A DNA stretch of 64,000 nucleotides from contig CAZNUU010000002.1 of the NCBI GenBank assembly GCA_964576615.1, positions 27,428-91,427 on the forward strand, written 5' to 3'. This DNA comes from an uncultured Candidatus Saccharibacteria bacterium. GTDB taxonomy: Bacteria; Patescibacteriota; Minisyncoccia; Phycocordibacterales; DATDWN01. The notes under the pieces were generated by a model. That model worked only from the letters and a program-made list of their open reading frames with translations. It did not search any database and was not told where the DNA came from. Positions 8,037-58,569 of the stretch are shown here, piece after piece. The position numbers and the translations under genes are program-made. The stretch's first letter is position 1, and each line of letters begins with the position of its first letter.

Positions 8037-8078
8037 AACCCCGTGCCGTGAAGCACGAGGCTCCACCTTACACGGGGT
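8037..8078 (-). terminator. Rho-independent terminator after the membrane-protein gene (accccgtg...cacggggt + T-run)
   Basis: GC stem with following T-run on the minus strand. Near-identical in architecture to the terminator at 10963-10991. Confidence 0.6.
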
Positions 8079-8458
8079 CAGAATTTCTTCACTGCGTTTG
8101 ATGCCTCGACGCTGTAGCCGCAGAGGAAGGCCAGGCCCAGAGCACGATCGCGGGCTTGATGCCAGCGGTGGATCTCTTTTTGGAGATCTTCCCAAGATTC
8201 GCTCCATCCAAGCATCTCCGTCATCCTGTCGCCAGGAAGATTGCCTTTCCGGTAGTTGTCGAAGTGGTTGTATGCCTGCCGGACTTTGTACTGCAGATCC
8301 TCCAGAACATCCGTGACCACAAGGTGAGGGAGATCCGGACCGTAAATCTTGCAGAACTCGATCGCGCAACGCTTTTCGAACGTTTTGCTATCGCGTTTCA
8401 AATACAGCGTGACAACAACCCCAAACACGAACCAGGCGGCAGCGATCAAATAGATCAT
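8078..8458 (-). CDS. Hypothetical small membrane protein (N-terminal TM, ~100 aa cytoplasmic domain), GC-rich cassette 1
   Basis: 126 aa, MIYLIAAAWFVFGVVVTLYL TM segment. Preceded by the conserved leader repeat C that ends in SD GATGAGGT. Confidence 0.5.
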   Translation of the reverse strand: MIYLIAAAWFVFGVVVTLYLKRDSKTFEKRCAIEFCKIYGPDLPHLVVTDVLEDLQYKVRQAYNHFDNYRKGNLPGDRMTEMLGWSESWEDLQKEIHRWHQARDRALGLAFLCGYSVEASNAVKKF

Positions 8459-8462
8459 ACGT

Positions 8463-8530
8463 TACCTCATCCAGGGTTCCAGCCCTGGCAACTCGCTGGG
8501 TCCTTCCCAACGATCTATCGGGACAATACC
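8463..8530 (-). promoter_or_regulatory. Conserved 5'-leader repeat family C, copy 1 (hairpin CAGGGCTGGAACCCTG overlapping SD)
   Basis: cctcatccagggttccagccctggcaactcgctgggtccttcccaacgatct. About 85% identical copy at 11373-11440, in the same position upstream of another small TM-protein gene. Confidence 0.6.
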
Positions 8531-8683
8531 ACTTTATGTATTATCAGTCAATATATTAGTTCAGAGGATTTTTGGTCGAGTTCAAGGCGCGAGTGAGCAA
8601 TGCGACCAAGCTGTATAGAAATACTGCGCGTGGAGCATGCGGAGCGAGCAACGCAGAAATCGGGCAAAAAGACCTGAACTAAT

Positions 8684-10933
8684 TTATTTTGCTACAGCGA
8701 TTGCTTCATCAAAAGCAACGCTAAGTAATTTCGATCCACCCTGTGAGCCCATAGTCACCCCATACAAAACTCCAGCTCGAGACATTGTTTCGCGGTTGTG
8801 GGTTATGACAATTAGTTGTGACTTGTTTGCTAAATTTTCCACCATATCTCCGTATTTTTTTGAGTTGGCCTCATCGAGCGCTGCGTCTGTTTCGTCGAGA
8901 ATAATAAAAGGCGGTGGATTCACCTGAGAAATTGCAAAAAGAAGCGCAATGGATGTAAGCGCCCTCTCCCCGCCAGAGAGCATCATTAGGCCTTTTACTT
9001 TTTTCTTGGGTAGGCTGACGTCAATATCTATGCCCTCTTCTGATTCCTCAACTTCCTCTAATTCTTCTTGTCCATCCTCCAGAAGTTCATCGACTTCTTT
9101 TTTTCTACGCTTCACCGGCTGACTTACCGAGAGTCTCGCCTCCCCGCCACCAAACATAAGTTTGAAATATTCATTAAACTGATCATTTATTTTCTCTATG
9201 CCAGACTTAAATTCGGTAGACAATTTGTCCTCAAGATCTTTTATAAGCAAAGTGAGAGAGCCCGCGGACTTCGCCAAATCTCCCAGTTCTCTCTCCAAAA
9301 ATGTGTCTCTCTCATTTGCTTCCGTAAACTCCTTCATAACGTCCGCTTCCCCAATCCCACCCGCATCTTCCAGACGAATTTTTATTTTCTCTATCCTCTT
9401 GCGCCTCTCCTCTTGCTTCGACCTATCTTCATCCAAATCAGTTATTTCCAATTTCTTGTAACTTAAAGCAACAGTGCCGAGTAAAATACCAAGCTCTTGC
9501 AGCTCTCTTTTAAAATCTTCCTGCACAAGCCGCAAATTCTCCTCCTCAGCTGCAAGAACTTGAAGTTTGCTTCTCACTTCCCCTGACTGCGCCATAACCC
9601 GAAACACTGCTTTCTCCGCATCGCGATTCTTATCTTTTTCTTTTTCGATTGTTTCCTTGAGTCTCTGATACTGCCCGGAAAGCTCCGTTTCTTTCTTTTT
9701 TATTTCCTCGAGGGATTTCTCTATTTTTCTTTTGGCATCCCGCAAATTCTCAATCTCCTTTTTACTGTCATCTAACAAAGTCATGTCTACATTTTCTTTG
9801 TTCTGATGAATGAACTCAGAGAGCAGCGCGGCCACTTGGTCCAAGGCTCGTGTTAAGCTTTCGATGTCTTTACTTTCTCTCACACTTTTTATCTTAGCTT
9901 CAATCTGCCCCGACAAACTCTCCACAGAAACCAAGGTTACCGTTTTGTGCTCGTAGGATTTTGCCACATCCTCTTGCTTTTTAACCATTTTAGCAAGTGA
10001 GCTGAGCTCGCCATCTATCCGACCGAAATCCCGAAATAAATTATCTTTGTCATCTCGAACTTTATGTAAATTATTTTCTAAAGCAATTAGCTCTTCTGAC
10101 TTTTCATCCTTACCTTTGGCCTTTTCCAAATGCGTCTTAGCCTCATCCAGTTCTTTATCGAGCTTTTTCTCCTCCTGCGCCAATGGATCTTTTTCTTCTT
10201 GGATTTTTTTTGTTGTCTTATTTATGTACTCCTCCTCGCGCTTCAAATACTCCAGAGCTTCCTTTTCCAAATCTCCCTTCATTTCTATAGTTTTTTGAAC
10301 CTTCTCAACTTGCTTTTTTAGAAATTTTAAATGCGGCGCGATTTCTTTGCGCAGAGACGCCACTTGGTCTATATTTTCTCGAGTTTTCTCTAACTTTCTT
10401 TCACTTTCATTCTTTTTATATTGAAAAAGCTTGAGCCCGAGCGCATCCTCGATCATCGTTTTCCTCTCTTTTATAGATGCGTTTAAAATTCTATCTGCCT
10501 CACCCTGCGAAATAATATGATGCCCGGAGGAACCGATGTGCGCGCTAGCGAGAAGCTCGACAATATCTTTGAGCCTCACTTGAGAACCATTTATAAGGTA
10601 CTCATTTACCGAGTCCCTGTGCACCACTCGCTCGAGAGTAACCGATTCATAATCAATCGGCAGAAATTTAGACGTATTATCAAATATAACCTTAACCGCG
10701 GCTCGATTTGCTTTGGGCAAATCCCCTGCGCCATTAAAAATGAGATCCTCTCCTTTTTTACCGCGCAGAGATTTGATTGATTGTTCACCTAAGACAAACC
10801 TAAATGCTTCCGCCACATTGGATTTACCCGAGCCATTCGGCCCAACTATAGCTGTAACCTTGGAGGTGAAATTGAGTTCTGCTTTTTTAGCAAAAGATTT
10901 AAAACCGGAAAGTTCGATGCTCTTCAAGTACAT
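8684..10933 (-). CDS. smc: Chromosome segregation protein SMC, unusually short (749 aa)
   Basis: N-terminal Walker A GPNGSGKSN, long coiled coils, C-terminal LSGGERALTSIALLFAI...FIILDETDAALD. Confidence 0.85.
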   Translation of the reverse strand: MYLKSIELSGFKSFAKKAELNFTSKVTAIVGPNGSGKSNVAEAFRFVLGEQSIKSLRGKKGEDLIFNGAGDLPKANRAAVKVIFDNTSKFLPIDYESVTLERVVHRDSVNEYLINGSQVRLKDIVELLASAHIGSSGHHIISQGEADRILNASIKERKTMIEDALGLKLFQYKKNESERKLEKTRENIDQVASLRKEIAPHLKFLKKQVEKVQKTIEMKGDLEKEALEYLKREEEYINKTTKKIQEEKDPLAQEEKKLDKELDEAKTHLEKAKGKDEKSEELIALENNLHKVRDDKDNLFRDFGRIDGELSSLAKMVKKQEDVAKSYEHKTVTLVSVESLSGQIEAKIKSVRESKDIESLTRALDQVAALLSEFIHQNKENVDMTLLDDSKKEIENLRDAKRKIEKSLEEIKKKETELSGQYQRLKETIEKEKDKNRDAEKAVFRVMAQSGEVRSKLQVLAAEEENLRLVQEDFKRELQELGILLGTVALSYKKLEITDLDEDRSKQEERRKRIEKIKIRLEDAGGIGEADVMKEFTEANERDTFLERELGDLAKSAGSLTLLIKDLEDKLSTEFKSGIEKINDQFNEYFKLMFGGGEARLSVSQPVKRRKKEVDELLEDGQEELEEVEESEEGIDIDVSLPKKKVKGLMMLSGGERALTSIALLFAISQVNPPPFIILDETDAALDEANSKKYGDMVENLANKSQLIVITHNRETMSRAGVLYGVTMGSQGGSKLLSVAFDEAIAVAK

Positions 10934-10962
10934 GGAATTTTATTTATTATAGCAAAAAGGAA

Positions 10963-10991
10963 AACCTCGTGCCCGGCAGAAACACGAGGTT
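10963..10991 (-). terminator. Rho-independent terminator (aacctcgtg...cacgaggtt + T-run on minus strand)
   Basis: Stem similar to the 8037-8078 terminator. A second cacgaggtt follows at 11001-11009. Confidence 0.55.
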
Positions 10992-11007
10992 CCCGCCAAA
11001 CACGAGG

Positions 11008-11367
11008 TTATTGAACGAATCTTGCCACCGTTTTGCCATAGCCATTGATCATGCCTATACCAATGGCTCGGTCAAGTCGGCGCTGGGCCTTCCTCACCCT
11101 TCTCTCGGCGTCCTTGAAGTTTGCCTCACATTTCGACTCGTAGACTTTATTGGCACTTGATTTCGCCTGGGCTAGAAAGGCCCGGCAGGTGTTCATCCAT
11201 TCACGCTCGTTATTGAGATCAGCAGTGATTCGGACGAGCCTCAGATCGATCTCGTAATCACCGAAGGACCCGAAGGCAGGGAGGAGAGACCAAAATCGGA
11301 GCGGGGGGATGTACGGCCAGAAAACAAATGCGAAGAATACGATCGGAAACACAATGCTCATACTCAT
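11008..11367 (-). CDS. Hypothetical small membrane protein, GC-rich cassette 2 (possible paralog of 8078-8458)
   Basis: Start set at MSMSIVFPIVFF (SD GAGGTG inside repeat C) by analogy with cassette 1. The track ORF extends through the leader only because no stop intervenes. Confidence 0.45.
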   Translation of the reverse strand: MSMSIVFPIVFFAFVFWPYIPPLRFWSLLPAFGSFGDYEIDLRLVRITADLNNEREWMNTCRAFLAQAKSSANKVYESKCEANFKDAERRVRKAQRRLDRAIGIGMINGYGKTVARFVQ

Positions 11368-11372
11368 ACAAC

Positions 11373-11440
11373 ACCTCATCCAGGGTTTCAGCCCCGGCAA
11401 CTCGCGGGGTTCTTCCTCGCGATCTGCAATAAACAATACT
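11373..11440 (-). promoter_or_regulatory. Leader repeat family C, copy 2
   Basis: cctcatccagggtttcagccccggcaactcgcggggttcttcctcgcgatct. Confidence 0.6.
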
Positions 11441-11461
11441 ACTTTTAACAAATACTGTCAA

Positions 11462-12151
11462 CTACTCCCAGCCTCGAGATTTTAGGGCCTTCTGTGCTGC
11501 CTCCTGTTCAGCCTCTTGTTTAGAATCGCCTTCGCCTGTCGCAATTAGATCTTTGCCTACGTAAACACCAACTGTAAATTTCTTTTTGTGATCTAAACCA
11601 GATTCCTTAACTGTTTTATAAACTGGAGTAATACCATCAAATTCTTGGGCTTTCTCTTGAAAAAGAGATTTGGCATCAATAAATTTTTTGCCAGAAATAA
11701 TATTATCTATGAGCGGAGTAAAATGCTTATGTATAAAATCTGTCGCAGTTTTTAAACCTTGATCAATATAAATTGCACCAATTAATGCCTCGAGAGCGTT
11801 TGCCAAAATATACTGCCTCGCCCGGCCAGTGTCTTTTGATTCGCCTTTTGATAATAAAAGATAATCTGACATTCCCAATTCCTTGGCAATTTCTGCACAG
11901 GTGTCTGCATTGACTAGAGCCGAACGATAAGCAGTTAAATCGCCTTCTGGTTTTGTTGGAAATTTTTTGTAGAGAAAATCTGTGGTCACAAGCTCCAAGA
12001 CAGCGTCGCCCAAAAATTCGAGGCGCTCATTATGCGAGAGTCCAGAATTTCTATTTTCGTTTATAAATGAACGATGAACAAAGGCTTGTTTTAAAACATC
12101 TTTATCTTTGAAATTTATACCTATTTTTTTTTCGAATTTTGAGTAATCCAT
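11462..12151 (-). CDS. rnc: Ribonuclease III
   Basis: ERLEFLGDAVLELV RNase III signature, C-terminal dsRBD. Confidence 0.9.
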   Translation of the reverse strand: MDYSKFEKKIGINFKDKDVLKQAFVHRSFINENRNSGLSHNERLEFLGDAVLELVTTDFLYKKFPTKPEGDLTAYRSALVNADTCAEIAKELGMSDYLLLSKGESKDTGRARQYILANALEALIGAIYIDQGLKTATDFIHKHFTPLIDNIISGKKFIDAKSLFQEKAQEFDGITPVYKTVKESGLDHKKKFTVGVYVGKDLIATGEGDSKQEAEQEAAQKALKSRGWE

Positions 12152-12310: not shown

Positions 12311-13213
12311 TTACTTTTTAAGCAGAACATTTATCGCCTTGGTGACTAGAGGTAGAATATCATTATAGAAGTTAAGGTCAAGGATATCTGCAAGCTTAAA
12401 CCATTTTGCGTCGTCTAAGCCGCCTTTGACCTCCGGATGCAGATCCTGAAACTTGGCCTCCGCAATAAAATAAGTAACATGCTTTTTTACCTTGCCCTTT
12501 TCTGGGTGATAGGATATATATTCATTTTCACCCAGCTTTTCTTTTATTTTTATATCAATACCTAACTCTTCTTTTATTTCTCTTATCGTCCCCTCTTCCA
12601 CGGTCTCTTCTTTTGTCTCGGGACTATCACCTATTTTGCCTTTAGACAGTGTCCAGCGACCAAAAACATCGTGAACCAAGGCTAAATAAATTTCGTCACC
12701 CTCTTTGGCATAAACAACTGCTCCTCCCAAATACTCATTGGTCACATGCCCGTTTTTGTGTTTGCGATCTTTAGAGCTTTGGTCCTTGCCTGGTTCACCC
12801 AGTTCTTTGTAAACAGCGCCTAGAACACCATTTACGAATTTACTAGATGTATCGGAGCCAAATGTTTTGGATAGTTCAATTGCCTCGTTTATTGCTACCT
12901 TGGGAGGTACTTCGTTTCTATTGGCAAACAAAAGTTCCCACAGCCCAATTCTCAAGATATTTCTATCGACAATACTTATTTTACTTATCGGCCAATCCGG
13001 TGCAGCTTTTTCGATAATTAAATCTATATCTCTTTTTTTATCCAGTACACCGTTAAGGAGATTCTCCATAAAGGAGAGGTCTGCATGACCAGGCGCAAAT
13101 TCATCTACATTTCTTTTGAAAATTTCTTTTACCTCTTTTGAGCTCTTGGAACCGAAATCCCATTCAAAAAGAGTTTGAAGAACTATGGATCTGGAAAGAT
13201 GCCGATTTGCCAT
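12311..13213 (-). CDS. nusB: NusB antitermination factor fused to a C-terminal Nudix hydrolase domain
   Basis: 300 aa. N-terminus SIVLQTLFEWDF...NRNILRIGLWELLF is NusB-like. C-terminus carries Nudix box GTIREIKEELGI. Confidence 0.7.
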   Translation of the reverse strand: MANRHLSRSIVLQTLFEWDFGSKSSKEVKEIFKRNVDEFAPGHADLSFMENLLNGVLDKKRDIDLIIEKAAPDWPISKISIVDRNILRIGLWELLFANRNEVPPKVAINEAIELSKTFGSDTSSKFVNGVLGAVYKELGEPGKDQSSKDRKHKNGHVTNEYLGGAVVYAKEGDEIYLALVHDVFGRWTLSKGKIGDSPETKEETVEEGTIREIKEELGIDIKIKEKLGENEYISYHPEKGKVKKHVTYFIAEAKFQDLHPEVKGGLDDAKWFKLADILDLNFYNDILPLVTKAINVLLKK

Positions 13214-13568: not shown

Positions 13569-14009
13569 TTATTTCACGAGGCCAAAATACTTGAGTGTCT
13601 CCAGAAGGCCGGGTTGGTGAGACCGGCACACCGAAACCTGAGCCCTGGTTCGACTCACCCATTCCGGCGGCAGGATGATTTCCGTACCATCTCGAATGGG
13701 TTTGTCTCGAAGCTGACCTTCGAAATCGGAATCCTGGAAAACGAAAAAGGTTTTCGGCTGACCACGATCGACCACGCTGAGTTCCGTAAGTGGTACAGCT
13801 TTTTCCTTGAGCCGGCGGCCAGTTTCGTCTCTGGTCTCTCGAGCTGCTGTTCCCCTCTTGGTTTGATCCTTCTTACTCCTCATTCCCCCCGGAAAGCCCA
13901 CTTTCTCAGGGAAACGAGGGTTATCCGGTATACTCTTCTGAACGAGGAGTTCGAGGGATTGATCTCGCCCCCTTACAGTCACAATCCCAGCCCACCACTT
14001 CTTTCGCAT
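13569..14009 (-). CDS. Nudix hydrolase (GC-rich, foreign-looking codon usage)
   Basis: 146 aa, Nudix box AARETRDETGR, SD AGGAGAG, own GC-stem terminator at 13545-13590. Confidence 0.6.
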   Translation of the reverse strand: MRKKWWAGIVTVRGRDQSLELLVQKSIPDNPRFPEKVGFPGGMRSKKDQTKRGTAARETRDETGRRLKEKAVPLTELSVVDRGQPKTFFVFQDSDFEGQLRDKPIRDGTEIILPPEWVSRTRAQVSVCRSHQPGLLETLKYFGLVK

Positions 14010-14657: not shown

Positions 14658-14713
14658 AATTAGATTTTAAAACACGAAGGCCGCCGACGCTAGAAGCGTG
14701 GCGGCCAAAGAAG

Positions 14714-15280
14714 CTAGAGACCAGAGTCCCGAAACGACTGCCCGAAACCGTCTACCCCAAGAGCCTTTCGCGCAAGTGGCAGAAACGGGTCCGGGTGTAA
14801 TTCAGCCTGAGCACTTGGAGTTTCGAGTGGGGGTGTGGGCTCGAATACAACCCGAGCGGTTTCCCCCAGCGTCTCGCGCACGATCCGGTTTGGATTGAGC
14901 TCGGCCTCAGTCATTTCTCGAGGTGGATCGATCTTCACCACAACCGCACGGGCCGCCTCCGTCACGTCATGGACGAACTTCGGATCCCAGTTGTTGTTGT
15001 AGGTATCGAGCATCACACCGTCCTTCTGGGCACGGCAACGGTTCACGACCTCGACCAGCCGGACAAGTTCCGCGATCGGTAGAACAGAGACCATCCTCTC
15101 GACCAGCAAGAGCTCGTCGAGAATATCACTGAGCTTGGCATGAACATCGCCGGTTCGGTTGAGGTCTTTTTTCCCTTCCGGAGTGGCGATCACACCTTCG
15201 TTCAGGCTCTCGGCGAGCCCTTCGACCAGTACCCGCAGGTTGCGAGTACCGGTTTGCAGATTGTTGCACAGCCAATTCAT
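14714..15280 (-). CDS. Hypothetical protein, GC-rich cassette
   Basis: 188 aa, SD GGGAGGT 5 nt before ATG, GC3-rich, no recognisable motif. Confidence 0.4.
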   Translation of the reverse strand: MNWLCNNLQTGTRNLRVLVEGLAESLNEGVIATPEGKKDLNRTGDVHAKLSDILDELLLVERMVSVLPIAELVRLVEVVNRCRAQKDGVMLDTYNNNWDPKFVHDVTEAARAVVVKIDPPREMTEAELNPNRIVRETLGETARVVFEPTPPLETPSAQAELHPDPFLPLARKALGVDGFGQSFRDSGL

Positions 15281-15524
15281 TTGAACCTCCCGACCCTGAA
15301 CAGGTCAACGGCTTTTCTTACGATCTCGGACTGAGACACGGTATCCAGAAGATGCGTGATGTAATGAACACCAGGCACCCCAGCCACATACCATGCCATT
15401 GCACTTAGAATGTGTCGCACATCGCCTCCATAGTTAACTTGTTTTCCGTTTTCATTATGGTGAATATAGCTATGCTTGTCAAAGTCAGATTCCAAAAATT
15501 GCGTGATATAATTCAAAAAATTCT

Positions 15525-18784: not shown

Positions 18785-18923
18785 GTAATCTCCGAAAAAA
18801 CACTCGGCTTCTCCAGCGGAAGCCTCGTTCGGTACTCGACGCCTCGTTGTCAAGAGCCTCTCGCTTGCTCGAGGTCATTGACAACGCCATGCTCGGCGTC
18901 TGCGTATGTTTTTCGGAGATTAC
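18785..18923. repeat. Large nested palindrome immediately downstream of dnaE
   Basis: Perfect 15-bp terminal inverted repeat gtaatctccgaaaaa / tttttcggagattac. Inner palindromes gacgcc..ttgtcaa / ttgacaa..ggcgtc and ggcttc/gaagcc. Confidence 0.7.
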
Positions 18924-19041
18924 TTCTTACACTTGTGGTTAGGGAAGCATGTGCTATGTTTTAAAATAATGAATTTGGTTAAAAGTTGTAATAAGAAAAG
19001 ATCTCGCACTGACACGATACGAGATCTTGTCTTGTGCGAGA

Positions 19042-19287
19042 TCAACAGTTGAGGAGAAGGAACGGGACCGTATTTTCTCCCTCCGGGACATCGCCAATGA
19101 GGTCACGAGTAAAGTACGGAAATGTCCCCTTACCACCCGCAGGAGGTTTTTGTTCGCCATTACGGGTCAAACGATACCGACCACGTGCGAGGATACTTCC
19201 GTCGCCCAGATCGATTTCGTCACCTGTCGCGAGATCGCGATCGACTTCTACGAGCAACCAGAGCCCAGGTCCGATAATTGCTTGCAT
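19042..19287 (-). CDS. Hypothetical protein, GC-rich cassette 3
   Basis: 81 aa. SD AAAGGA. Hairpin terminator at 18996-19031. Overlapping ORFs in all frames (GC-rich), so the call is weak. Confidence 0.3.
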   Translation of the reverse strand: MQAIIGPGLWLLVEVDRDLATGDEIDLGDGSILARGRYRLTRNGEQKPPAGGKGTFPYFTRDLIGDVPEGENTVPFLLLNC

Positions 19288-19380
19288 GAGTGTTGTCCTT
19301 TCTAGGGCATAGATTACTAGAAACTAAACGAGTGTCAAATGAAAATGCGCCGGGGATTCCGGCGCATTGGGTACGAGCGA

Positions 19381-19623
19381 TTACGATTGACTTCGCTCGT
19401 GTTCAAGCATTTTCCGAGTTTGTCGAAACCTCGAATTCAAGACTCGGTCGCTGGACTTCCTCACATAGACCATGGAAGAAGCAGCAAGAACACAGACGGT
19501 TGCAGGGATGAAGTAGTAAACATTGCGGGAAAACCACCCTGTCGCAAAAAAGATTGCGCACAGAACCCAGGTCAGGCTCTCGGTGTTTTGCCACCATCGG
19601 CTCGACCAAATCGTTTTGTTCAT
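19381..19623 (-). CDS. Hypothetical 2-TM membrane protein, GC-rich cassette 3
   Basis: Perfect SD AAAGGAGG 4 nt before ATG. Terminator aatgcgccgg..ccggcgcatt at 19345-19372. Confidence 0.5.
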   Translation of the reverse strand: MNKTIWSSRWWQNTESLTWVLCAIFFATGWFSRNVYYFIPATVCVLAASSMVYVRKSSDRVLNSRFRQTRKMLEHERSQS

Positions 19624-19853: not shown

Positions 19854-21113
19854 ATGTCGGAACATAAAACAAGAGAAAATAACGGCGAGATGGACGAGAA
19901 TGACCATCGAGTGCTAGGTAAGGAACTGGATCTATTCACTTTCTCAGATACAGTTGGCAAAGGCCTACCCCTTTATACCGAAAAGGGCGCGGCTATTCGT
20001 CGTGAGCTAGAAAGATTTATCATCGATGAAGAAATAAGACGCGGCTACAAACACGTTTCGACTCCGGATATAGCAAAACTAGATCTGTACGAGAAATCTG
20101 GTCACTATCCCTATTACAAGGATTCAATGTATGCGCCAATTGAAATTGATGAGGAGAAATTCATGCTGCGGCCAATGACTTGCCCCCATCATTTTGAACT
20201 TTATCTATCAAGACCAAGAAGCTATCGTGAATTACCAATGCGCATCGCCGAAGTAGCCAAACTTTATCGCTACGAAAATTCTGGCAATCTTGCGGGATTG
20301 GTACGGGTCAGATCTTTCTGTCTCGCCGATGGTCACATTATTTGTGCCGACAAAGATCAAGCTAGAGAAGAAGTAAAAGCCGCGCTTAGACTTATTGAAG
20401 ATGTTGTAGGAGTTTTTGGTTTGAAGAAAAATGAGGATTTTTGGTACAGACTTTCTTTGGGCGACCGCAAAGATGATAACAAATACTACAAAGATGACGC
20501 GGCTTGGGATGAGGCAGAGGGAGTCTTGCGAGAAGTTTTACAGAATCAGGATGTAAGATTTGAAGAGGCTGAAAACGAGGCTGCCTTTTACGGACCGAAG
20601 ATAGACATCCAGATGAAAGACGCTCGCGGCCAGGAAAATACTGCCTTTACTGTGCAATACGATTTCGTTATGCCAAAAAGATTCCACTTGGTTTACGTCG
20701 ACAAAGATGGCAAAGAGAAACTAGCGATAGTAATTCACCGTTCTTCCATTGGCGCAACCGAAAGAATAATGGCTTTCCTCATTGAAAAATACCGAGGTAA
20801 CTTTCCTCTCTGGCTGTCCCCTGTTCAAGTTAAAGTTATTCCGGTTCGAGAAAATCATAACGCTAAAGCTCGAGAAATTTTTGAAATGCTCCGCGATGCT
20901 GGAATTCGTGTTGAAATAGATGAAGCGGATGAAAATCTCGGCTCCAAAGTTCGTGATGCCAAAGTAAATAAAATTCCTTACTGGGTTGTTATTGGCGACA
21001 AAGAAGTTGAGTCTGGCAAACTTGCTTTGGAATCTCGCGATGGTAAAAAATCTGAACTTGATTCAGAAGAGCTTCTCGCCAAACTCCAAAAAGAAATTAA
21101 AGAAAAGAAATAA
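19854..21113 (+). CDS. thrS: Threonyl-tRNA synthetase, short form (catalytic core + anticodon-binding domain only)
   Basis: 419 aa. DHRVLGKELDLF and class II motifs. Lacks the TGS/editing N-terminal ~240 aa. Confidence 0.85.
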   Translation: MSEHKTRENNGEMDENDHRVLGKELDLFTFSDTVGKGLPLYTEKGAAIRRELERFIIDEEIRRGYKHVSTPDIAKLDLYEKSGHYPYYKDSMYAPIEIDEEKFMLRPMTCPHHFELYLSRPRSYRELPMRIAEVAKLYRYENSGNLAGLVRVRSFCLADGHIICADKDQAREEVKAALRLIEDVVGVFGLKKNEDFWYRLSLGDRKDDNKYYKDDAAWDEAEGVLREVLQNQDVRFEEAENEAAFYGPKIDIQMKDARGQENTAFTVQYDFVMPKRFHLVYVDKDGKEKLAIVIHRSSIGATERIMAFLIEKYRGNFPLWLSPVQVKVIPVRENHNAKAREIFEMLRDAGIRVEIDEADENLGSKVRDAKVNKIPYWVVIGDKEVESGKLALESRDGKKSELDSEELLAKLQKEIKEKK

Positions 21114-21119
21114 GCGAAG

Positions 21120-21150
21120 AGCCCGCCAGAGGTTGCTGACGGGCTCATGA
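21120..21150. terminator. Bidirectional terminator between convergent thrS and the zinc-finger gene
   Basis: gagcccgccagaggttgctgacgggctc hairpin. Confidence 0.55.
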
Positions 21151-21158
21151 ATGTACTC

Positions 21159-21650
21159 TTAGGAGTGGAAACGGTCAGTAGGCGGAAGAAGACGGCTGAG
21201 CTGCTCCCGACGTTGCCTGAGTTCGTCGATCTCGCGTTCCGCAGCCTTTCCTCGCTGGACAGTCTCATCCTTGTCGGAAATGAGTTGATCAGTCCGTAGC
21301 AGTTCGTGCCGCCGCGCCTGGACCAGACCAAGTTTCAGGACATGGTCCAGGGCTTCAATGACACGGTAGATCGAGACTCTCCCCCCATCTGTAGGCAGAC
21401 TGCTCTGGACGGCCCCTAGTACGGAACCTGCGCTTACAGATTGCCATCTGGTGATGAGCTCGAGATCATCTGCCCGAACCCTGACGACACTGTCCAGACC
21501 CATCTCGAATGTGAGTTCAGTCGTGAGAAGGATGTCCTTGCAGACTTCCACACACTCATCGCAGATGTAAACCACCGGGCCAGAGATGAGCTTCTTCACA
21601 TCACACTGTGCCTTGTTGCAGAACGAACAACGAAGAATCTCTTTTGTCAT
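21159..21650 (-). CDS. Stand-alone ClpX-type zinc-binding domain protein with unknown GC-rich C-terminal domain
   Basis: [34 protein letters not shown] matches zf-C4_ClpX. No AAA+ domain. Start set to M7 (SD GAGAGGTG) because -10 TATAGT / -35 TTGACA on the minus strand place the TSS downstream of M1. Confidence 0.55.
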
Positions 21651-21701
21651 GCACACCTCTCTGTGCATGACTATACAAAAATATTTATAACTGTCAATAA
21701 A

Positions 21702-29005: not shown

Positions 29006-29377
29006 TCAAGGGTTCGCAGCTGGATACGTGCGCACAGAACTCAAGGGATCGTAGCAGCCATATACCCGGAGCTCGTCACCACTTTGATCGTTGAACCAAA
29101 CTCTTCCATAGCATTCCTTGTAGCTGGCCTTCTCGTAGAGCACGACATCTGCCCCCGACTGCGACAGGTTTCTGACTTCCAGAATCCTGAAGACCTCGGT
29201 CTTACTCCACGGTGGCCGCGTCGGGATAGATTTCTCGGCCCGAGCTTTCCACTTGTTGAAGTTACTAGCCACCTTCTCCTGCTCGGCAAGAGCCTGAGAA
29301 TCAGCCCGCTTCAGCCCCGAGAGGTATCCTCCTCCAAACAGCATGACGATAGCAAGAACAACCCAAAACCTCCGCAT
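29006..29377 (-). CDS. Hypothetical membrane-anchored protein, GC-rich cassette 4
   Basis: Start set to ATG MRRFWVVLAIVML with SD AGGAGGTG at ideal spacing (track start is GTG 6 nt upstream). GC-stem terminator at 28962-28992. Confidence 0.5.
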   Translation of the reverse strand: MRRFWVVLAIVMLFGGGYLSGLKRADSQALAEQEKVASNFNKWKARAEKSIPTRPPWSKTEVFRILEVRNLSQSGADVVLYEKASYKECYGRVWFNDQSGDELRVYGCYDPLSSVRTYPAANP

Positions 29378-30839: not shown

Positions 30840-31670
30840 TTACTTAAACAACCGAGAGAACTTCTTGTGTTCGAGGTGATAGTTAAACCCCTCCCTCATT
30901 TCCTGGAGGCGCCCATATTTTTCTTTATTGTACTTGGGCGTCTTTGGGAAATGAATAAAGGCAACTGCAGAGTAGCGACCACTTTTGGCTGTTTTATCGT
31001 TTGCAACTACCCGATGCCATAGTGCTCTGAGACGGCCCACGGATCGCAATTGCATCTGCATGTCAGGAATCACGACTGTTTCGGTCTTTGAAACAGGCAT
31101 GGGCACCCACTCACCACTGAAGTTTAAACATTCCAGTCCTGGTGCGCTTTCAAACAGATGGAACGTAACTCCGCCTTGATCCACATGAGGTTGGGCTACG
31201 GATTCTCCTTTACGTTTTTGCCCTGGATAGTGGATAAATCTTACGAAGACTAGGCCACTTTCCTCTGAGACCTCTCGCGAGAAACCTGGAAGCTCAAACT
31301 CCTTTTCAATCAGTCTTGAGAAATTGGCAACCAGTGGCCTCAGAAATTTCGCAACTTCCAGTGCATGATCGACGAAGTTTCTAACCACCAGATTGTAATC
31401 CGTCCGAGTTTGCATCCTGGCTTCAAGGGAGACCTCTGCTTCTTCTGTGATATCGAAGTTTTCCTTGATATCCCCCTTTGGACCCTCGCCTACTTTCTTT
31501 TCATAACCAAATCCGGCTGAGTTGTTGCTGTAGCCTAAAGCTAGCTTGATTTCATCTGGTAAAGCACAGAATGCTTGCCAGGACTTCTCTGCTCTCCTTA
31601 CCGCAACCTGAAGCTTTTTCGGAAAAGGTACGTCGACAAAACCCTCGGTCTCAAAATTTCTAATCTGCAT
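30840..31670 (-). CDS. 2-oxoglutarate/Fe(II)-dependent oxygenase superfamily protein
   Basis: HxD (PHVDQGG), distal His (LWHRV) and RxS (RYSAVAF) motifs. Start set to MQIRNFETEGFVDVPFP with SD AGGAG. Terminator tcgccggc..gccggcga at 30806-30834. Confidence 0.6.
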   Translation of the reverse strand: MQIRNFETEGFVDVPFPKKLQVAVRRAEKSWQAFCALPDEIKLALGYSNNSAGFGYEKKVGEGPKGDIKENFDITEEAEVSLEARMQTRTDYNLVVRNFVDHALEVAKFLRPLVANFSRLIEKEFELPGFSREVSEESGLVFVRFIHYPGQKRKGESVAQPHVDQGGVTFHLFESAPGLECLNFSGEWVPMPVSKTETVVIPDMQMQLRSVGRLRALWHRVVANDKTAKSGRYSAVAFIHFPKTPKYNKEKYGRLQEMREGFNYHLEHKKFSRLFK

Positions 31671-31780
31671 GTTTTTTCTCCTAGTTGATAAAAAAGAACC
31701 ACTAGGAAAAGTATGATTTTTAATCAAAACTAAAAAAGCGAGGGCTTCCTCACTTGAAACTAGCTTGAAATATTGGGCAT

Positions 31781-32491
31781 TTAATTGTCGCTTTGGATAT
31801 TTTCCTCAAAGAAAAACGGTAGGGATTTAATTTTATTATTTTTTACAGCTTTTAGAACTTTTACAATAGTTTTAAGGGAGTCATAATCTACTGACTCATT
31901 CTTGATGGCCTCATTTATAGGCAACCACATATTGTGACCAAACTTAGTATCAGCTAGTAACTCCCCGTTTACTACACTTGTGTATGTGATTGGAAACATT
32001 ACATCCGAGAAGATCTCATTGTTTTTATACATTACCCTCCTCTCGTAACCAACCAATTTCAACTTTGCAATAAGACCAGTTTCTTGATTTAACTTTCTGG
32101 CCGCTGCTTCTTCGATAAGTTCACCTTTAAGCACTACCCCACCCATGACACCGATTTTTCCATAGGACGGATTCGACTTTCTCAGCTGGCTTAAAATTTC
32201 GATTTTCCCCTTGTTAACCCTGGAAACTATTGTTATTACATTCATTTTAAAAAGACTTGTGATTGCATCGTTCGATGGATACGGATCTGCGACATGTTTA
32301 ATGCCATTTCCAGATAACCCGTAACCATTTCTATCTTTATTTATCAGGCCTTTTTTGACTAAAAATTGCAGATGATAGTTGAAAAGATCATTTGGCACTT
32401 TACCAAATTTGAGCTCACTATATCTTAGAGTTTTGGCGTCTTTTAGCTTCGAAAGAATGCGATTCTGAATCGAAGAGAAATTCTGTAACAT
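31781..32491 (-). CDS. Winged-HTH domain fused to C-terminal Nudix-like domain (putative Nudix-related regulator)
   Basis: N-terminus LRYSELKF...FNYHLQFLVKKGLI is wHTH-like. C-terminus has degenerate Nudix box GELIEEAAARKLNQETGL. Confidence 0.5.
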   Translation of the reverse strand: MLQNFSSIQNRILSKLKDAKTLRYSELKFGKVPNDLFNYHLQFLVKKGLINKDRNGYGLSGNGIKHVADPYPSNDAITSLFKMNVITIVSRVNKGKIEILSQLRKSNPSYGKIGVMGGVVLKGELIEEAAARKLNQETGLIAKLKLVGYERRVMYKNNEIFSDVMFPITYTSVVNGELLADTKFGHNMWLPINEAIKNESVDYDSLKTIVKVLKAVKNNKIKSLPFFFEENIQSDN

Positions 32492-33910: not shown

Positions 33911-34015
33911 ATATTTAAATTATACACCAAATATAGACGTTCCGTCTGGCAAATTAATACAAAAATTTGTTGTCTAAAGATTTTTCATTATAATGTTTCT
34001 TAGAGGAGGAGGCTA

Positions 34016-34756
34016 ATGCGACATACGCAACGCGGCCTCTTCCACGGAAGAGGCAAAAGAAACTTCAACGGCTGGCTGCCTGGGATGGACACCAAGATCA
34101 AAGACGGAGGGCGGTTTGGGGAAGGCTTGATCCAACATCTTTTGGGAGGAAGGCAGAGTGAGTCAGCTAGCTCGGGAGAGGCAGACATCTGGCGAGAGGA
34201 CCTTGATCTCGGTATCGAGGTTAAGACTCACTCAAACACAGATCCTCTGCGGATCCCGGAGAGTCAACTCGACTCACATCTGGATATCTGTCAGTGCGGC
34301 TTCCCGTATTCCTATTGCTGGTATGCCATCGTCAAATACAGAAACATTAGACGAGGAGATGGATACCTCTTTCAAGCCAGTTCTGGATCACAAGAGAAAA
34401 CAGAACTGTTCTTGAAAGAAAACACGACAGCGGTTTATGTTCTCGACATCTCTGTCGTCGACGCAATCAGGAAATTTCGGGGAAACTGTATCCGAATGTG
34501 GCGAAGCCACGAGCATCAAGCCGCCGTTCGGATCAGGTGGAGCTACTTGCGAGAATTCGAAGTCTCACCCAAAGAAGCCTTGGCGCTCCTAAACCTAGAC
34601 CCTCGAAACTATCGAGCGGAGGCAAGGAGTGTACAGGTTTCTTTAGGCGGCACCTTCATGCAGTTCCCCTTCGTTCTCTGCGTTCATCGGAAATCGCTGG
34701 GAAGAGCTCACAGAAAAAAACAGCTCAACCTCTTTCCGATAGAGGAGAAAAGCTAA
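34016..34756 (+). CDS. Hypothetical protein, GC-rich single-gene cassette 5 (possible PD-(D/E)xK-type nuclease motif D..EVK)
   Basis: SD GAGGAGGAGG, GC3 ~60% against ~35% for neighbours, EDLDLGIEVKT motif. Followed by a strong terminator. Confidence 0.4.
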   Translation: MRHTQRGLFHGRGKRNFNGWLPGMDTKIKDGGRFGEGLIQHLLGGRQSESASSGEADIWREDLDLGIEVKTHSNTDPLRIPESQLDSHLDICQCGFPYSYCWYAIVKYRNIRRGDGYLFQASSGSQEKTELFLKENTTAVYVLDISVVDAIRKFRGNCIRMWRSHEHQAAVRIRWSYLREFEVSPKEALALLNLDPRNYRAEARSVQVSLGGTFMQFPFVLCVHRKSLGRAHRKKQLNLFPIEEKS

Positions 34757-34761
34757 ACACC

Positions 34762-34800
34762 TCACTTGCTTGCGTAAGTGAGGTGTTCGATTTTTTCTTA
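34762..34800. terminator. Rho-independent terminator (aacacctcactt-gcttgcgt-aagtgaggtgtt + T-run), bidirectional
   Basis: 12-bp stem, TTTTTT downstream. Lies between convergent genes. Confidence 0.7.
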
Positions 34801-34806
34801 TTTAGA

Positions 34807-35478: not shown

Positions 35479-35545
35479 TGCGCTAGTATATAGAAAAGAG
35501 TTTAAAAAATCAACTTATTAGGATTCCGTTGAGCCGTATCTTGAA

Positions 35546-35620
35546 AAAAGCCTTTCGCAGGTGAGAAGCGAAGGCGACGAGAAGTTCGCTGGGCGAGCCC
35601 GCCCAGATAGATTGCTTTTT
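35546..35620. repeat. Repeat family A, copy 3 (with 5-nt internal insertion)
   Basis: aagcctttcgcaggtgagaagcgaaggcgacgagaagttcgctgggcgagcccgcccagatagattgctttt. Confidence 0.85.
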
Positions 35621-35644
35621 GAAAGATATGGCGAGTAAGGAATC

Positions 35645-37555: not shown

Positions 37556-37588
37556 ACGCCCGTGCAGTGTTAGTGCACGGGCGTAGAA
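37556..37588. terminator. Bidirectional terminator cgcccgtgcagtgttagtgcacgggcg
   Basis: Perfect 10-bp GC stem between convergent genes. Confidence 0.65.
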
Positions 37589-37591
37589 GAA

Positions 37592-38110
37592 CTAGGCCGA
37601 CTTTTTTCCTCTGGGTAAATAGGCGCGATAGTCCCCATCCTTTACCTGAACGAGCCTTGGGAAGGTTGAAGCTAGATTTTTGAAATTGAGGAAACTACGG
37701 TATGCAGTGGCCTCCTCATCAACCAACTGGGCCTTCACCCTATCAAAATCGTCCTTAGTCCTGCCTAAAGCAGCAAGTCCTCCTTGTCTGAAACGCTCGA
37801 GGGTGTCGACGGCATCTTGATAACTTTGGGCCTTTAGACCCAACTGTTGATCAACCTCTTCTTGAAGAACCTCCTGCCTCGAGAAACAGTTGTAAAAAAC
37901 CTCCATCTCCCGCCAGTTTCCATACGCGCGGTCGAGCTCACTTCTCTTTCTCAGGATGTAGAGAGAAAGGGAAGCTAGGGCGCCGCCGAGAAAAGCAACG
38001 AACGCGAGCAAGATGTACGGGTGAACCAAGTTCCTCTCCGGTCCGGCAAGCCGAACCATGAGCATGGATGAGACGAGCGCGCTGAGCACGAATAAGCCAG
38101 TGTAGGCCAT
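37592..38110 (-). CDS. Hypothetical 2-TM membrane protein with ~110 aa soluble domain, GC-rich cassette 6
   Basis: 172 aa, GC3-rich. Possible distant similarity to 8078-8458 and 11008-11367 (TM + W/E/Y..A..F..R motifs) is weak. Confidence 0.45.
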   Translation of the reverse strand: MAYTGLFVLSALVSSMLMVRLAGPERNLVHPYILLAFVAFLGGALASLSLYILRKRSELDRAYGNWREMEVFYNCFSRQEVLQEEVDQQLGLKAQSYQDAVDTLERFRQGGLAALGRTKDDFDRVKAQLVDEEATAYRSFLNFKNLASTFPRLVQVKDGDYRAYLPRGKKSA

Positions 38111-38263
38111 AACTCACCTATCTTCCCCACAACTCGGGTAATCCAAGTTGGTAGGACATCGTCCATGGGGAGTTTTCTCCCTTAATTAAAATCTTTTAAA
38201 GACAAAAGTCAATTGCTATCCGTTATATAAAACTTCAGCGCGGATTTCTCCGCGCCGAAAAGT

Positions 38264-38614
38264 CTAGTACATCTCTTCCCTGATTCTAGAGAGCTCGAGG
38301 ATCACGGAAGGATCCGTGATTTTCTGGAATCGTGGAATAGTTTGTCCGTCCTTCTCCACTTCCCCCATCCACATCTCGAGTGGTCTGCCGTCGAAACAAG
38401 GCACGCCAAGCTCTTTTGAGGCCTTGTAGACCGACGACTCATAAAGTGGGATGTAACTCACGAAGTGCTCTTCCCCAGGGCGTGGATGATCTTCTGTGTG
38501 AAATATTACGCCAATAACCTCGTAGGCGTAGTTGTTCACGGGACCTGCGGGGTCATGCTTGTAGTGATAGTAGAACCCTACTTCTGGAACTTGCTTGGGC
38601 ATTGGTAGCGCCAT
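38264..38614 (-). CDS. Hypothetical protein, GC-rich cassette 6
   Basis: Start set to MALPMPKQVPEVGFYYHYKHD with SD GAGAGGAGAG. The upstream part of the track ORF overlaps tkt. Terminator gcgcgga-tttc-tccgcgc at 38232-38255. Confidence 0.4.
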   Translation of the reverse strand: MALPMPKQVPEVGFYYHYKHDPAGPVNNYAYEVIGVIFHTEDHPRPGEEHFVSYIPLYESSVYKASKELGVPCFDGRPLEMWMGEVEKDGQTIPRFQKITDPSVILELSRIREEMY

Positions 38615-57738: not shown

Positions 57739-58569
57739 TTATTTATTCCTCAAATTTTTATCTAGTGTATTACCTTTTTCATCTTTCCAAGCAGTCCAGC
57801 CGTTTATTGGACTCCCAGTAATTGTTGCAGCAGCTGCAGAAGGGCTCTTAAAAATTATATTCCTTAAAAATAAATACGAACTACCGTCATTGTTATCAAT
57901 CATTGTTCCATCTTCAAGATAACTCGCTCTCGCAGCCTTTGCCCATCCTGCAAAAGCAACTGTTTCTCTTTTTCTTGCCAATGAATGCTTCAATACATTT
58001 ATACTACCATCGTTTAATAACTGTGCTTTAGCATCAATACCTTCCCCTTTTAAGTAGTAGAATTTTTCGTCTGATATTGAGTCTTCGATACTATCAAAAA
58101 TATGATACCCGAAAGTTGAAAAGATTTTCTTTACACCATCAAGATATCTTTCGTTTTTTATGCGATCGAATTCGTTCTTAGCCTCTTCTCTTGGTTGTGT
58201 CGCATTTTTTACCACATATCTTTTAGCCTTTCTAGATAACTTCGCAGATATTGATTCAAGATAGTTTCTATCAGGAGGATTCAAAAAAATGAATGCCTGA
58301 TTCCAATAATCTTTTTCTGCATCATGAGACTCGAGTCGATTCGCACAATCACTAGATTCTCCGATATACACTAGCTGATTGCCTGTCTGTTTATCCTCAC
58401 CGAACAAGAAGTACAACCCTGAGGCTTGTATCTCCGGCCTCTCCTTCAGAGAGCCTATCTCAGTCCTTGGAACAATAATCGCTCTGCCGTCCCATCCAGT
58501 TAACTCAATAACTTTTATCCCATTAGGATCCCCTTTTGGAAAGATGAGCTGCATTACAAAAGACTCCAT
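57739..58569 (-). CDS. GIY-YIG nuclease domain protein with C-terminal DUF4357-like domain
   Basis: GLYFLFGE...VYIGES..R..H GIY-YIG motifs. C-terminal tail ...GSPINGWTAWKDEKGNTLD. Confidence 0.55.
   Translation of the reverse strand: MESFVMQLIFPKGDPNGIKVIELTGWDGRAIIVPRTEIGSLKERPEIQASGLYFLFGEDKQTGNQLVYIGESSDCANRLESHDAEKDYWNQAFIFLNPPDRNYLESISAKLSRKAKRYVVKNATQPREEAKNEFDRIKNERYLDGVKKIFSTFGYHIFDSIEDSISDEKFYYLKGEGIDAKAQLLNDGSINVLKHSLARKRETVAFAGWAKAARASYLEDGTMIDNNDGSSYLFLRNIIFKSPSAAAATITGSPINGWTAWKDEKGNTLDKNLRNK

Follow-up and report, generated by a model that had tools for sequence, protein, structure and literature searches.

Phage morons, described by Juhala, Hendrix and colleagues in 2000, are reportedly single genes that carry their own promoter and factor-independent terminator, lie between genes that are adjacent in relatives and have an atypical composition. 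In chromosomal hotspots of horizontal gene transfer (HGT), the subject of work by Oliveira, Touchon and Rocha in 2017, accessory genes are said to concentrate in a few core-flanked slots, many without mobile-element genes. Integron cassettes are promoterless open reading frames (ORFs) arrayed by intI and carry attC sites with an R''-L''...L'-R' architecture, a GTTRRRY core and a length of 57-141 bp. The DNA analyzed here is a 64,000-nucleotide stretch, called the window, from an uncultured Candidatus Saccharibacteria bacterium (assembly GCA_964576615.1, contig CAZNUU010000002.1, positions 27,428 to 91,427). Its central element is cassette 9, one of ten GC-rich islands, which encodes a 246-aa putative nuclease. 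Cassette 9 is probably a horizontally acquired, self-contained nuclease gene unit, and the other nine islands are probably moron-like accessory units of mixed age.

Cassette 9 resembles a moron in having its own promoter and terminator, in sitting between genes that are adjacent in relatives, in its atypical composition and in the lack of integration machinery. The units of the window differ from morons in lying in a cellular chromosome of the candidate phyla radiation (CPR), where they are flanked by genes for L25, aldolase, DnaE and GyrB, and the cassette 9 protein has no PHROG, phage or viral-contig match. A further difference is that at least ten units occur within 40 kb and are led by a Shine-Dalgarno (SD) motif, in contrast to an apparently leaderless core. 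The units differ from the described HGT hotspots in being very small, with one or two genes each. Like integron cassettes they are small and end in an imperfect palindrome, but they have no attC architecture, array or intI, they have their own promoters, and their palindromes are terminator-like and 25-47 nt long. What is seen here is a clean example of moron-like HGT, with single genes entering hotspots between operons, and it includes a new PD-(D/E)xK family. It offers a single-gene view of a streamlined CPR genome gaining plug-in units (promoter, SD, ORF and terminator) in the gaps between operons. To our knowledge, a consistent signature of SD motif and high G+C at third codon positions (GC3) has not been described for this clade.

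Cassette 9 and its junction

Cassette 9 separates the L25/Ctc gene from a conserved transglycosylase-like gene and is composed of the following features.

33931-34806 (+): whole insert, flanked by the transglycosylase-like gene (start 33910) and the L25/Ctc gene (stop 34807)
33967-33994 (+): putative promoter identified by reading the sequence, with TTGTTG at 33967-33972, a 16-nt spacer and a perfect -10 TATAAT at 33989-33994
34002-34012 (+): SD, AGAGGAGGAGG, 3-6 nt ahead of the ATG at 34016
34016-34756 (+): ORF of 246 aa, GC 0.51, GC3 0.56
34756-34800 (no strand assigned): intrinsic terminator, stem AACACCTCACTT/AAGTGAGGTGTT extendable to 14 bp, then CGATTTTTTCTT

The -35 hexamer matches the consensus at only three of six positions, and the promoter was therefore missed by a consensus scan. 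The terminator hairpin (34756-34787) has 14 bp, an energy of -22 kcal/mol and z = -5.3. It is bidirectional and is shared with the convergent L25 gene.

The junction was compared in 80 metagenome loci collected via the L25 protein. Relatives were sampled as ~20 kb loci, with ~160 related loci overall. A homologue of the 468-aa transglycosylase-like gene lies directly after L25 in 70-71 of the 80 loci. Following correction for unaligned gene ends, the gap measures 896 bp in the window compared with a median of 42 bp in the relatives, where 94% of the gaps are <300 bp and none of 70 is as large. In the closest locus, L092, nothing but the terminator of L25 and a leaderless promoter lies at the junction. 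There is no homologue of the 246-aa protein at the L25 junction in the 70 related loci, and tblastn with the protein against 160 related loci (~20 kb per genome) gave no match. Because the same junction is tight in the related loci and in L092, cassette 9 is read as a lineage-specific insertion. L144 is among the few relatives with an expanded L25 junction and carries a different gene there (2144-2785) for a 213-aa membrane protein with its own terminator (GC 0.46 versus 0.39). The L144 insert differs from cassette 9, and at least two independent insertions have therefore used the L25 junction.

The cassette 9 protein and its family

The N-terminal ~115 residues of the 246-aa protein contain a PD-(D/E)xK core (E36, D57, E68, K70 and Q84) arranged as an alpha-beta-beta-beta-alpha-beta fold in the predicted structure. 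The N-terminal half is predicted to adopt a PD-(D/E)xK nuclease fold whose nearest known counterparts are Hjc, RecU and I-Ssp6803I. When 1.84 billion cluster representatives (50% identity) were scanned exhaustively with HMMER, 83 relatives came up at E<1e-3, all 210-275 aa long. A profile search through a word index added one further protein, and a word-indexed search with the protein itself returned only the query. The best homologues are 39-42% identical. K70, Q84 and L133 are invariant in the family alignment and D57, E68, F96, P97, Y108 and D144 are near-invariant; over 44 homologues, K70 never varies and D57 and E68 hardly do, and the corresponding strands of the model span residues 58-60 and 65-73. 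The alignment gives the family pattern D...ExK...Q, extended to E...D...ExK...Q by a frequent glutamate in the first helix (E36) that is a reading of it. An earlier annotation based on the letters of the window (the sequence-only reading) had guessed a PD-(D/E)xK nuclease from the segment EDLDLGIEVK. The fold and the motif bear out this guess, with E68 and K70 forming the ExK of that segment, but they assign the protein to no named family.

Searches of Pfam, NCBIfam, PADLOC and PHROGs and a PDB sequence profile search placed the protein in no family, and Pfam and NCBIfam, Hjc and RecU profiles included, gave no match even at E<=10. Foldseek against the PDB gave no match, and phage, plasmid and viral-contig collections contain no relatives. 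DUF4365, the UniRef name of homologue P0003, was rejected as a family assignment after P0003, P0084, P0002 and the window protein all lacked a Pfam match at E<=10. Membership in a named PD-(D/E)xK family is not supported, and judged by these searches the protein is a member of a rare, uncatalogued family.

The described nucleases for comparison are Hjc, RecU, I-Ssp6803I and the N-terminal domains of the type IV enzymes NhoI and Eco15I. The cassette 9 protein has no detectable sequence-family membership with them and differs in an extra ~120-aa C-terminal domain and in a Q-x3-H motif in the helix after the third strand. It also lacks the near-universal housekeeping distribution of Hjc and RecU, with 83 clusters and no match in 160 loci of ~20 kb each. 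The protein is like type IV-like restriction nucleases in being stand-alone with no adjacent DNA methyltransferase and is unlike them in matching no defence model or reader domain. It is most likely a putative Mg2+-dependent stand-alone DNA endonuclease that would function in defence or selfish maintenance and not in housekeeping recombination.

Eight homologue contexts were examined besides the window. The homologues sit at unrelated loci in other Patescibacteria, where they are stand-alone, separate transcription units. P0002 and P0084 are 56% identical to each other and both lie upstream of recO in two genomes, one homologue is beside fpg with ruvA nearby, and one, in a Nomurabacteria metagenome-assembled genome (MAG), has a metallo-beta-lactamase-fold gene on one side and a small ORF on the other. 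P0010 is two genes from a small-molecule-type S-adenosylmethionine methyltransferase, and no DNA methyltransferase adjoins the gene in the window or in the eight contexts. A GGAGG-type SD is found at the same place in 8/8 contexts and a hairpin usually lies directly past the stop codon, whereas the neighboring genes have no SD. The gene exceeds its surroundings in GC by 0.03-0.15 in all but one of the eight contexts, where it falls 0.05 below its host (gene minus flank: +0.15, +0.11, +0.09, +0.08, +0.07, +0.03 to +0.065, and -0.05), and the hosts range from 40 to 57% GC. Judged by these contexts, the family behaves as a self-contained unit moving among Patescibacteria. It is an addition to the genes that appear to move in this clade: an uncharacterised putative PD-(D/E)xK nuclease family whose C-terminal domain is novel.

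Composition and expression signals of the ten islands

The window is a chromosome segment of a CPR/Patescibacteria (Paceibacteria) bacterium with ~41% GC. All DnaE relatives come from MAGs, which carry the label Paceibacterota, Parcubacteria, Zambryskibacteria or 'Saccharibacteria', with up to 74-81% identity, and the housekeeping genes are collinear in relatives over both 4.9-27 kb and 27-40 kb. The islands are flanked by genes for DnaE, GyrB, RNase R, a short SMC, RNase HII, L25/Ctc, class II (fructose-bisphosphate) aldolase, transketolase and GAPDH.

A 200-nt sliding window recovers GC islands of ~50-57% over the 41% background at all ten places listed by the sequence-only reading. Cassette genes were curated by frame-specific GC, SD position and terminators, yielding 13 genes in the ten islands with GC 0.49-0.57 and GC3 0.49-0.66. 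The GC3 of native genes in the curated table (n = 51) is 0.348 ± 0.043 with a maximum of 0.429. The cassette values are z = 3.3-7.4 above these 51 genes with no overlap (Mann-Whitney p = 3e-8). Four-fold sites have a G+C of 0.58 in cassettes versus 0.35 in native genes, two-fold sites have C or G at 0.56-0.58 versus 0.32-0.33, and cassette proteins use more R and less K and I. The shift affects all synonymous classes and amino-acid use, and is therefore a shift of the whole sequence and not selection for particular codons.

An SD-like motif precedes the start by 4-18 nt in 13/13 cassette genes, compared with 2/51 native genes (Fisher p = 8e-12), a count that is somewhat biased by the choice of an internal start partly for its SD in 4 of the 13. 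A -10-like (TATAAT-like) hexamer lies 5-16 nt before the ATG in 19/51 native genes and in 0/13 cassette genes; examples are found upstream of 10933, 23825, 33910, 36511, 36560, 54628 and 57681. Many core genes look leaderless because of this hexamer. A GC-rich stem-loop follows the stop codon of every cassette and is strong with a T-run in 9-10 cases. The cassettes are scattered, not arrayed, and have their own promoters, and many of the islands encode small membrane or secreted proteins. There is no similarity among the cassette proteins except for a weak resemblance between 2a and 3, and no boundary motif common to the cassettes was found beyond this pair. RNA genes were rejected as the source of the GC islands, as Rfam gave only four tRNAs in the window; for island 2 it gave no match at E<=1.

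The sequence-only reading had described these islands as single-gene cassettes with high GC3, SD motifs missing from most native genes and bounding terminators. The composition, the SD contrast and the terminators are all confirmed. Its single-gene layout is corrected for islands 2, 6 and 10, which hold two genes, with those of island 6 on the minus strand, and for island 5, which has an extra small ORF upstream that is conserved. Its alternative of a lineage-specific family of mobile small genes fits the 2a/3 pair only. The nine islands other than cassette 9 and their signals are as follows.

4173-4415 (-): cassette 1, 80-aa putative lipoprotein with lipobox-like LMTGAC, GC3 0.53, SD GGAGGTGA, 9-bp hairpin past the stop
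7679-8560 (-): cassette 2, two genes, 8078-8458 (126 aa, N-terminal transmembrane (TM) helix) and 7679-8056 (125 aa)
10960-11470 (-): cassette 3, gene 11008-11367 (119 aa, TM helix), 20-bp terminator 10964-11008
8459-8560 and 11368-11470 (-): leader shared by 2a and 3, TTGAC[TA]-N17-TATTGT promoter, 55-nt leader ending in the SD
13569-14009 (-): cassette 4, Nudix hydrolase, 146 aa
14679-15516 (-): cassette 5, gene 14714-15280 (188 aa, GC3 0.65), small upstream ORF 15277-15420, promoter TTGACA-17-CATAAT, hairpin 14679-14706
19042-19623 (-): cassette 6, two genes, 19381-19623 (80 aa, 2 TM helices) and 19042-19287 (81 aa), one terminator per gene (19344-19368 and 18998-19028)
21113-21697 (-): cassette 7, 163-169 aa protein with only a ClpX-type zinc finger, promoter TTGACA-16-TATAGT, 11-bp terminator
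29006-29377 (-): cassette 8, 123-aa protein with a signal/TM segment, SD AGGAGGTG, 11-bp hairpin
37556-38614 (-): cassette 10, genes 37592-38110 (172 aa, 2 TM helices) and 38264-38614 (116 aa, DUF1653), one terminator each

The product of the cassette 7 gene (21159-21668, -) has a helical tail behind its ClpX-type C4 zinc finger and no AAA+ module, and its weak PHROG matches cover the zinc-finger part only.

Slots across the clade

Control junctions inside operons are tight in all relatives. Two junctions, those of cassette 9 and of the 30.8-32.5 kb region, are expanded in the window only and tight in relatives. The second holds a two-gene insertion (30840-32491, -) consisting of a 2OG-Fe(II) oxygenase gene (GC 0.46, with SD and terminator) and a gene for a Nudix-winged helix-turn-helix (Nudix-wHTH) protein (GC 0.36), and measures 1734 bp in the window versus a median of 90 bp in 45 relatives. 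The Nudix-wHTH gene (31781-32491) is not GC-rich, and thus not every lineage-specific insertion is GC-rich. The junctions of cassettes 2, 3, 4, 6, 7 and 10 vary in size in most relatives and contain unrelated genes of mixed composition. For cassette 8, the median junction length over 37 loci is 91 bp. The cassette proteins gave no tblastn match at E<=1e-5 in the collinear related loci, with the exception of the Nudix protein.

Accessory ORFs were defined as ORFs without a homologue in other loci. Over the ~160 loci, GC3 is >=0.12 above the locus median in 17% of accessory ORFs versus 1% of core genes, and >=0.12 below it in 9% versus 1%. An SD-like motif precedes 19% of accessory ORFs versus 4% of core genes, and the core value is under the random background of 8-9%. 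This core/accessory split in initiation signals means that start-codon and gene prediction in such genomes needs two models. The compositional outliers and the SD motifs among accessory ORFs fit the picture of HGT hotspots. They also fit the finding that gene transfer between Patescibacteria is frequent and that most transfers stay within Patescibacteria (PMC12455944).

The DUF1653 protein of cassette 10 is a member of a widespread, well-conserved Patescibacteria family (862 matches, 70-79% identity). The GC of a DUF1653 homologue matches its host in two other genomes, and because family GC tracks the host there, the window copy looks like a xenologue from a Patescibacterium of ~50% GC.

GC bias in diverged slot genes

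The slot between RNase HII and DnaE contains a 188-198-aa gene on the same strand with a GC3 of 0.65-0.66 in the window, L007 and L004. The slot alignment covers 14679-15516 of the window (cassette 5), 440-1290 of L007 and 9289-10000 of L004, and the hosts of the orthologues have ~42% GC. The three proteins are barely alignable at 22-32% identity and have LVxxV[ND]xCR in common. The promoter, the small upstream ORF and the 3' hairpin are kept between the window and L007, with the hairpin ~95% identical. Four-fold sites in DnaE are 33% identical between the cassette 5 lineages versus 27% by chance, and neutral sites are therefore saturated. At such saturation any GC excess inherited from a donor would be expected to have faded, but all three genes retain it in full. 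The cassette 4 Nudix gene has a positional orthologue in L055 that is 36% identical and is also GC-richer than its locus.

Cassettes 2a and 3 are paralogues with a promoter and leader that are 87% identical and terminators that are alignable, but their coding sequences have diverged until they are almost unrelated. The leader folds into two hairpins with compensatory changes in the first hairpin between the copies, and it may be a regulatory leader RNA. It has no copy in 174 other loci and no Rfam match. Part of the GC signature is maintained, either by biased gene conversion or repeated allelic replacement at the slots, or by selection. Slot genes that are old and fast-evolving and yet still high in GC3 can be used to test whether GC-biased gene conversion (gBGC) or selection acts in bacteria.

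Origin of cassette 9 and the other islands

Acquisition of cassette 9 would have started with horizontal transfer from another, GC-richer Patescibacterium and ended with insertion into the normally very short gap between L25/Ctc and the transglycosylase-like gene. Entry may have occurred by DNA uptake and then illegitimate or flank-homology-assisted recombination with no dedicated integrase. There is no integrase among ten mid-size window ORFs checked or in the ORF scans, as the sequence-only reading had stated, and no attachment site was found. Cassette 9 would have persisted because inter-operon gaps tolerate insertions, and in a leaderless, SD-less host only imports that bring their own SD and terminator may be expressed without harm. 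The other nine islands would be units of the same type in inter-operon slots that vary over the clade. Their ages appear mixed: cassette 9 and the 30.8-32.5 kb insertion would be lineage-specific, and cassettes 4 and 5 older and fast-evolving with their GC bias kept. The sequence-only reading had proposed repeated import from a GC-richer donor and had noted that syntenic orthologues with the same GC bias in many relatives would instead indicate ancient native genes. The L25 junction in relatives (896 bp against a median of 42 bp, 0/70 as large) supports insertion of cassette 9, and the DUF1653 gene looks imported as well. Repeated import does not hold as a blanket explanation, since biased orthologues exist in the same slots for cassette 5 (L007 and L004) and cassette 4 (L055), which in part is the pattern that the sequence-only reading had named as a sign of native genes.

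Several observations weigh against this reading of the origin and role of cassette 9. A donor was not identified, and the nearest homologue is only 42% identical. Sampling of ~20 kb per relative leaves room for a copy of the gene elsewhere in those genomes. The only sign of an insertion scar is an imperfect 11/13 direct repeat (33979 and 34789), plausibly due to chance in AT-rich DNA, and no convincing target-site duplication or inverted repeat flanks cassette 9. A GC excess also survives in the long-standing positional orthologues of cassettes 4 and 5, and GC-richness by itself is therefore no proof of recent import. Two homologues adjoin recO and one adjoins fpg and ruvA, which hints at a repair role. 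The C-terminal ~120 residues have no recognisable fold or structural match and no defence-family model or modified-base reader domain matches the protein, and its cellular role is therefore a guess.

The GC-rich, SD-led cassettes could instead be a native, fast-evolving accessory class, rich in genes for surface proteins, with GC3 and SD actively maintained, for example by gBGC at slots prone to recombination or by mRNA or expression selection, a possibility that we consider doubtful but not slight. A maintained class would explain why the cassette 5 orthologues of L007 and L004 keep slot, strand, size and a GC3 of 0.65-0.66 despite saturation, why the L055 orthologue of cassette 4 is also GC-rich, and why a hyper-divergent coding sequence sits between conserved flanks in cassette 5. 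The common leader and terminator of 2a and 3 around different coding sequences point the same way, as does the positive GC offset in 7/8 other contexts of the nuclease family in hosts of 40-57% GC. These observations are set against the cassette 9 junction, where 0/70 relatives have the unit, the one family member that is GC-poorer than its host, the DUF1653 homologues whose GC tracks the host elsewhere, and the deviation of accessory ORFs in both GC directions over the clade. A division into two separate gene classes, with an AT-rich, SD-less, largely leaderless core and GC3-rich, SD-led, terminator-capped accessory genes in inter-operon slots, would invoke a slot-specific force and not just incomplete amelioration, and we consider it rather unlikely. 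In this reading, put forward for this Paceibacteria clade, the accessory genes would retain both GC excess and flanking expression signals even as their coding sequences become unrecognisable. If it is true, the force would be, for example, GC-biased gene conversion from frequent allelic replacement, or selection via SD-dependent expression.

The remaining explanations are less probable. A free-standing homing endonuclease gene would cut the vacant L25/transglycosylase junction or a nearby conserved site and be copied in during repair. The sporadic distribution, the occupied (window) and cassette-free versions of the site among 70 related loci and the position between conserved genes with its own expression signals are consistent with homing. 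P0002 and P0084 share a recO-upstream site in two genomes, although this could be vertical inheritance. Homing is nevertheless unlikely, because no second lineage has a homologue at the L25 junction (0/70), two genomes must meet in one cell, and there is no intron or intein context. A housekeeping recombination or repair nuclease, such as a Holliday-junction resolvase or RecU analogue, is quite improbable. Such a role is hard to square with the rarity of the family, which has 83 clusters among 1.84 billion representatives, and also with the absence of the gene from the syntenic site in 70 relatives, the lack of a match to any Pfam or NCBIfam model, Hjc and RecU among them, the extra ~120-aa C-terminal domain, and the separate transcription unit in each context examined. 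Mobilisation by a site-specific system would make the 3' hairpins recombination sites, either integron-like attC hairpins or parts of an element resembling a miniature inverted-repeat transposable element. A hairpin does end every cassette, the cassette 5 hairpin is ~95% conserved with L007 though neutral sites are saturated, and a 120-nt interspersed repeat is present in some slots. The hairpins have no common sequence and no R''/R' GTTRRRY cores, however, they are short (25-47 nt) and followed by T-runs as in ordinary terminators, and the cassettes are scattered without an array, have their own promoters and come with no integrase among the scanned ORFs, all of which makes such a system very improbable. 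It is just as hard to credit that the islands are assembly or binning chimeras. The sequence comes from a MAG, but the island borders coincide with promoters and terminators, an independently assembled Logan contig spans cassette 9 and both junctions at 100% identity, and relatives show similar occupied slots; the sequence-only reading had likewise thought a chimera unlikely.

Other features of the window

An interspersed non-coding repeat of ~120 nt is present at 7516-7639 (+), 3134-3254 (-) and 35512-35640 (-) with 86-90% identity within the window, and a longer related form lies at 18786-18934 (+). The repeat carries a GGGCGGGCTCGCCC hairpin and a terminator-like hairpin and has no Rfam match. 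Its sites are just downstream of the RNase R and DnaE genes and between the aldolase and L25 genes, and copies occur in relatives at partly conserved positions (L067 4968-5087, L055 13238-13386, L097 5807-5916 and L004 2379-2433). ORF 3101-3328 is probably spurious because it covers one copy. The L25-aldolase gap (35479-35644) is 166 bp in the window and is occupied by the repeat, whereas most relatives have 1.2-2.6 kb of extra DNA there.

Three Nudix-domain genes lie within 20 kb: 12311-13213, cassette 4 and 31781-32491. The first (12311-13213, -) encodes a 300-aa protein with a NusB domain fused to a C-terminal NUDIX, and its full length is kept in relatives at 68-76% identity. The SMC homologue (8684-10933, -) has 749 aa compared with ~1180 aa in the typical model, a length shared by its relatives that points to a strongly shortened coiled coil. 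The product of the gene at 57739-58569 (-) has 276 aa and combines DUF4357 with a RAMA (restriction enzyme adenine methylase associated) domain. The gene has native GC, lies outside the islands and may be defence-related.

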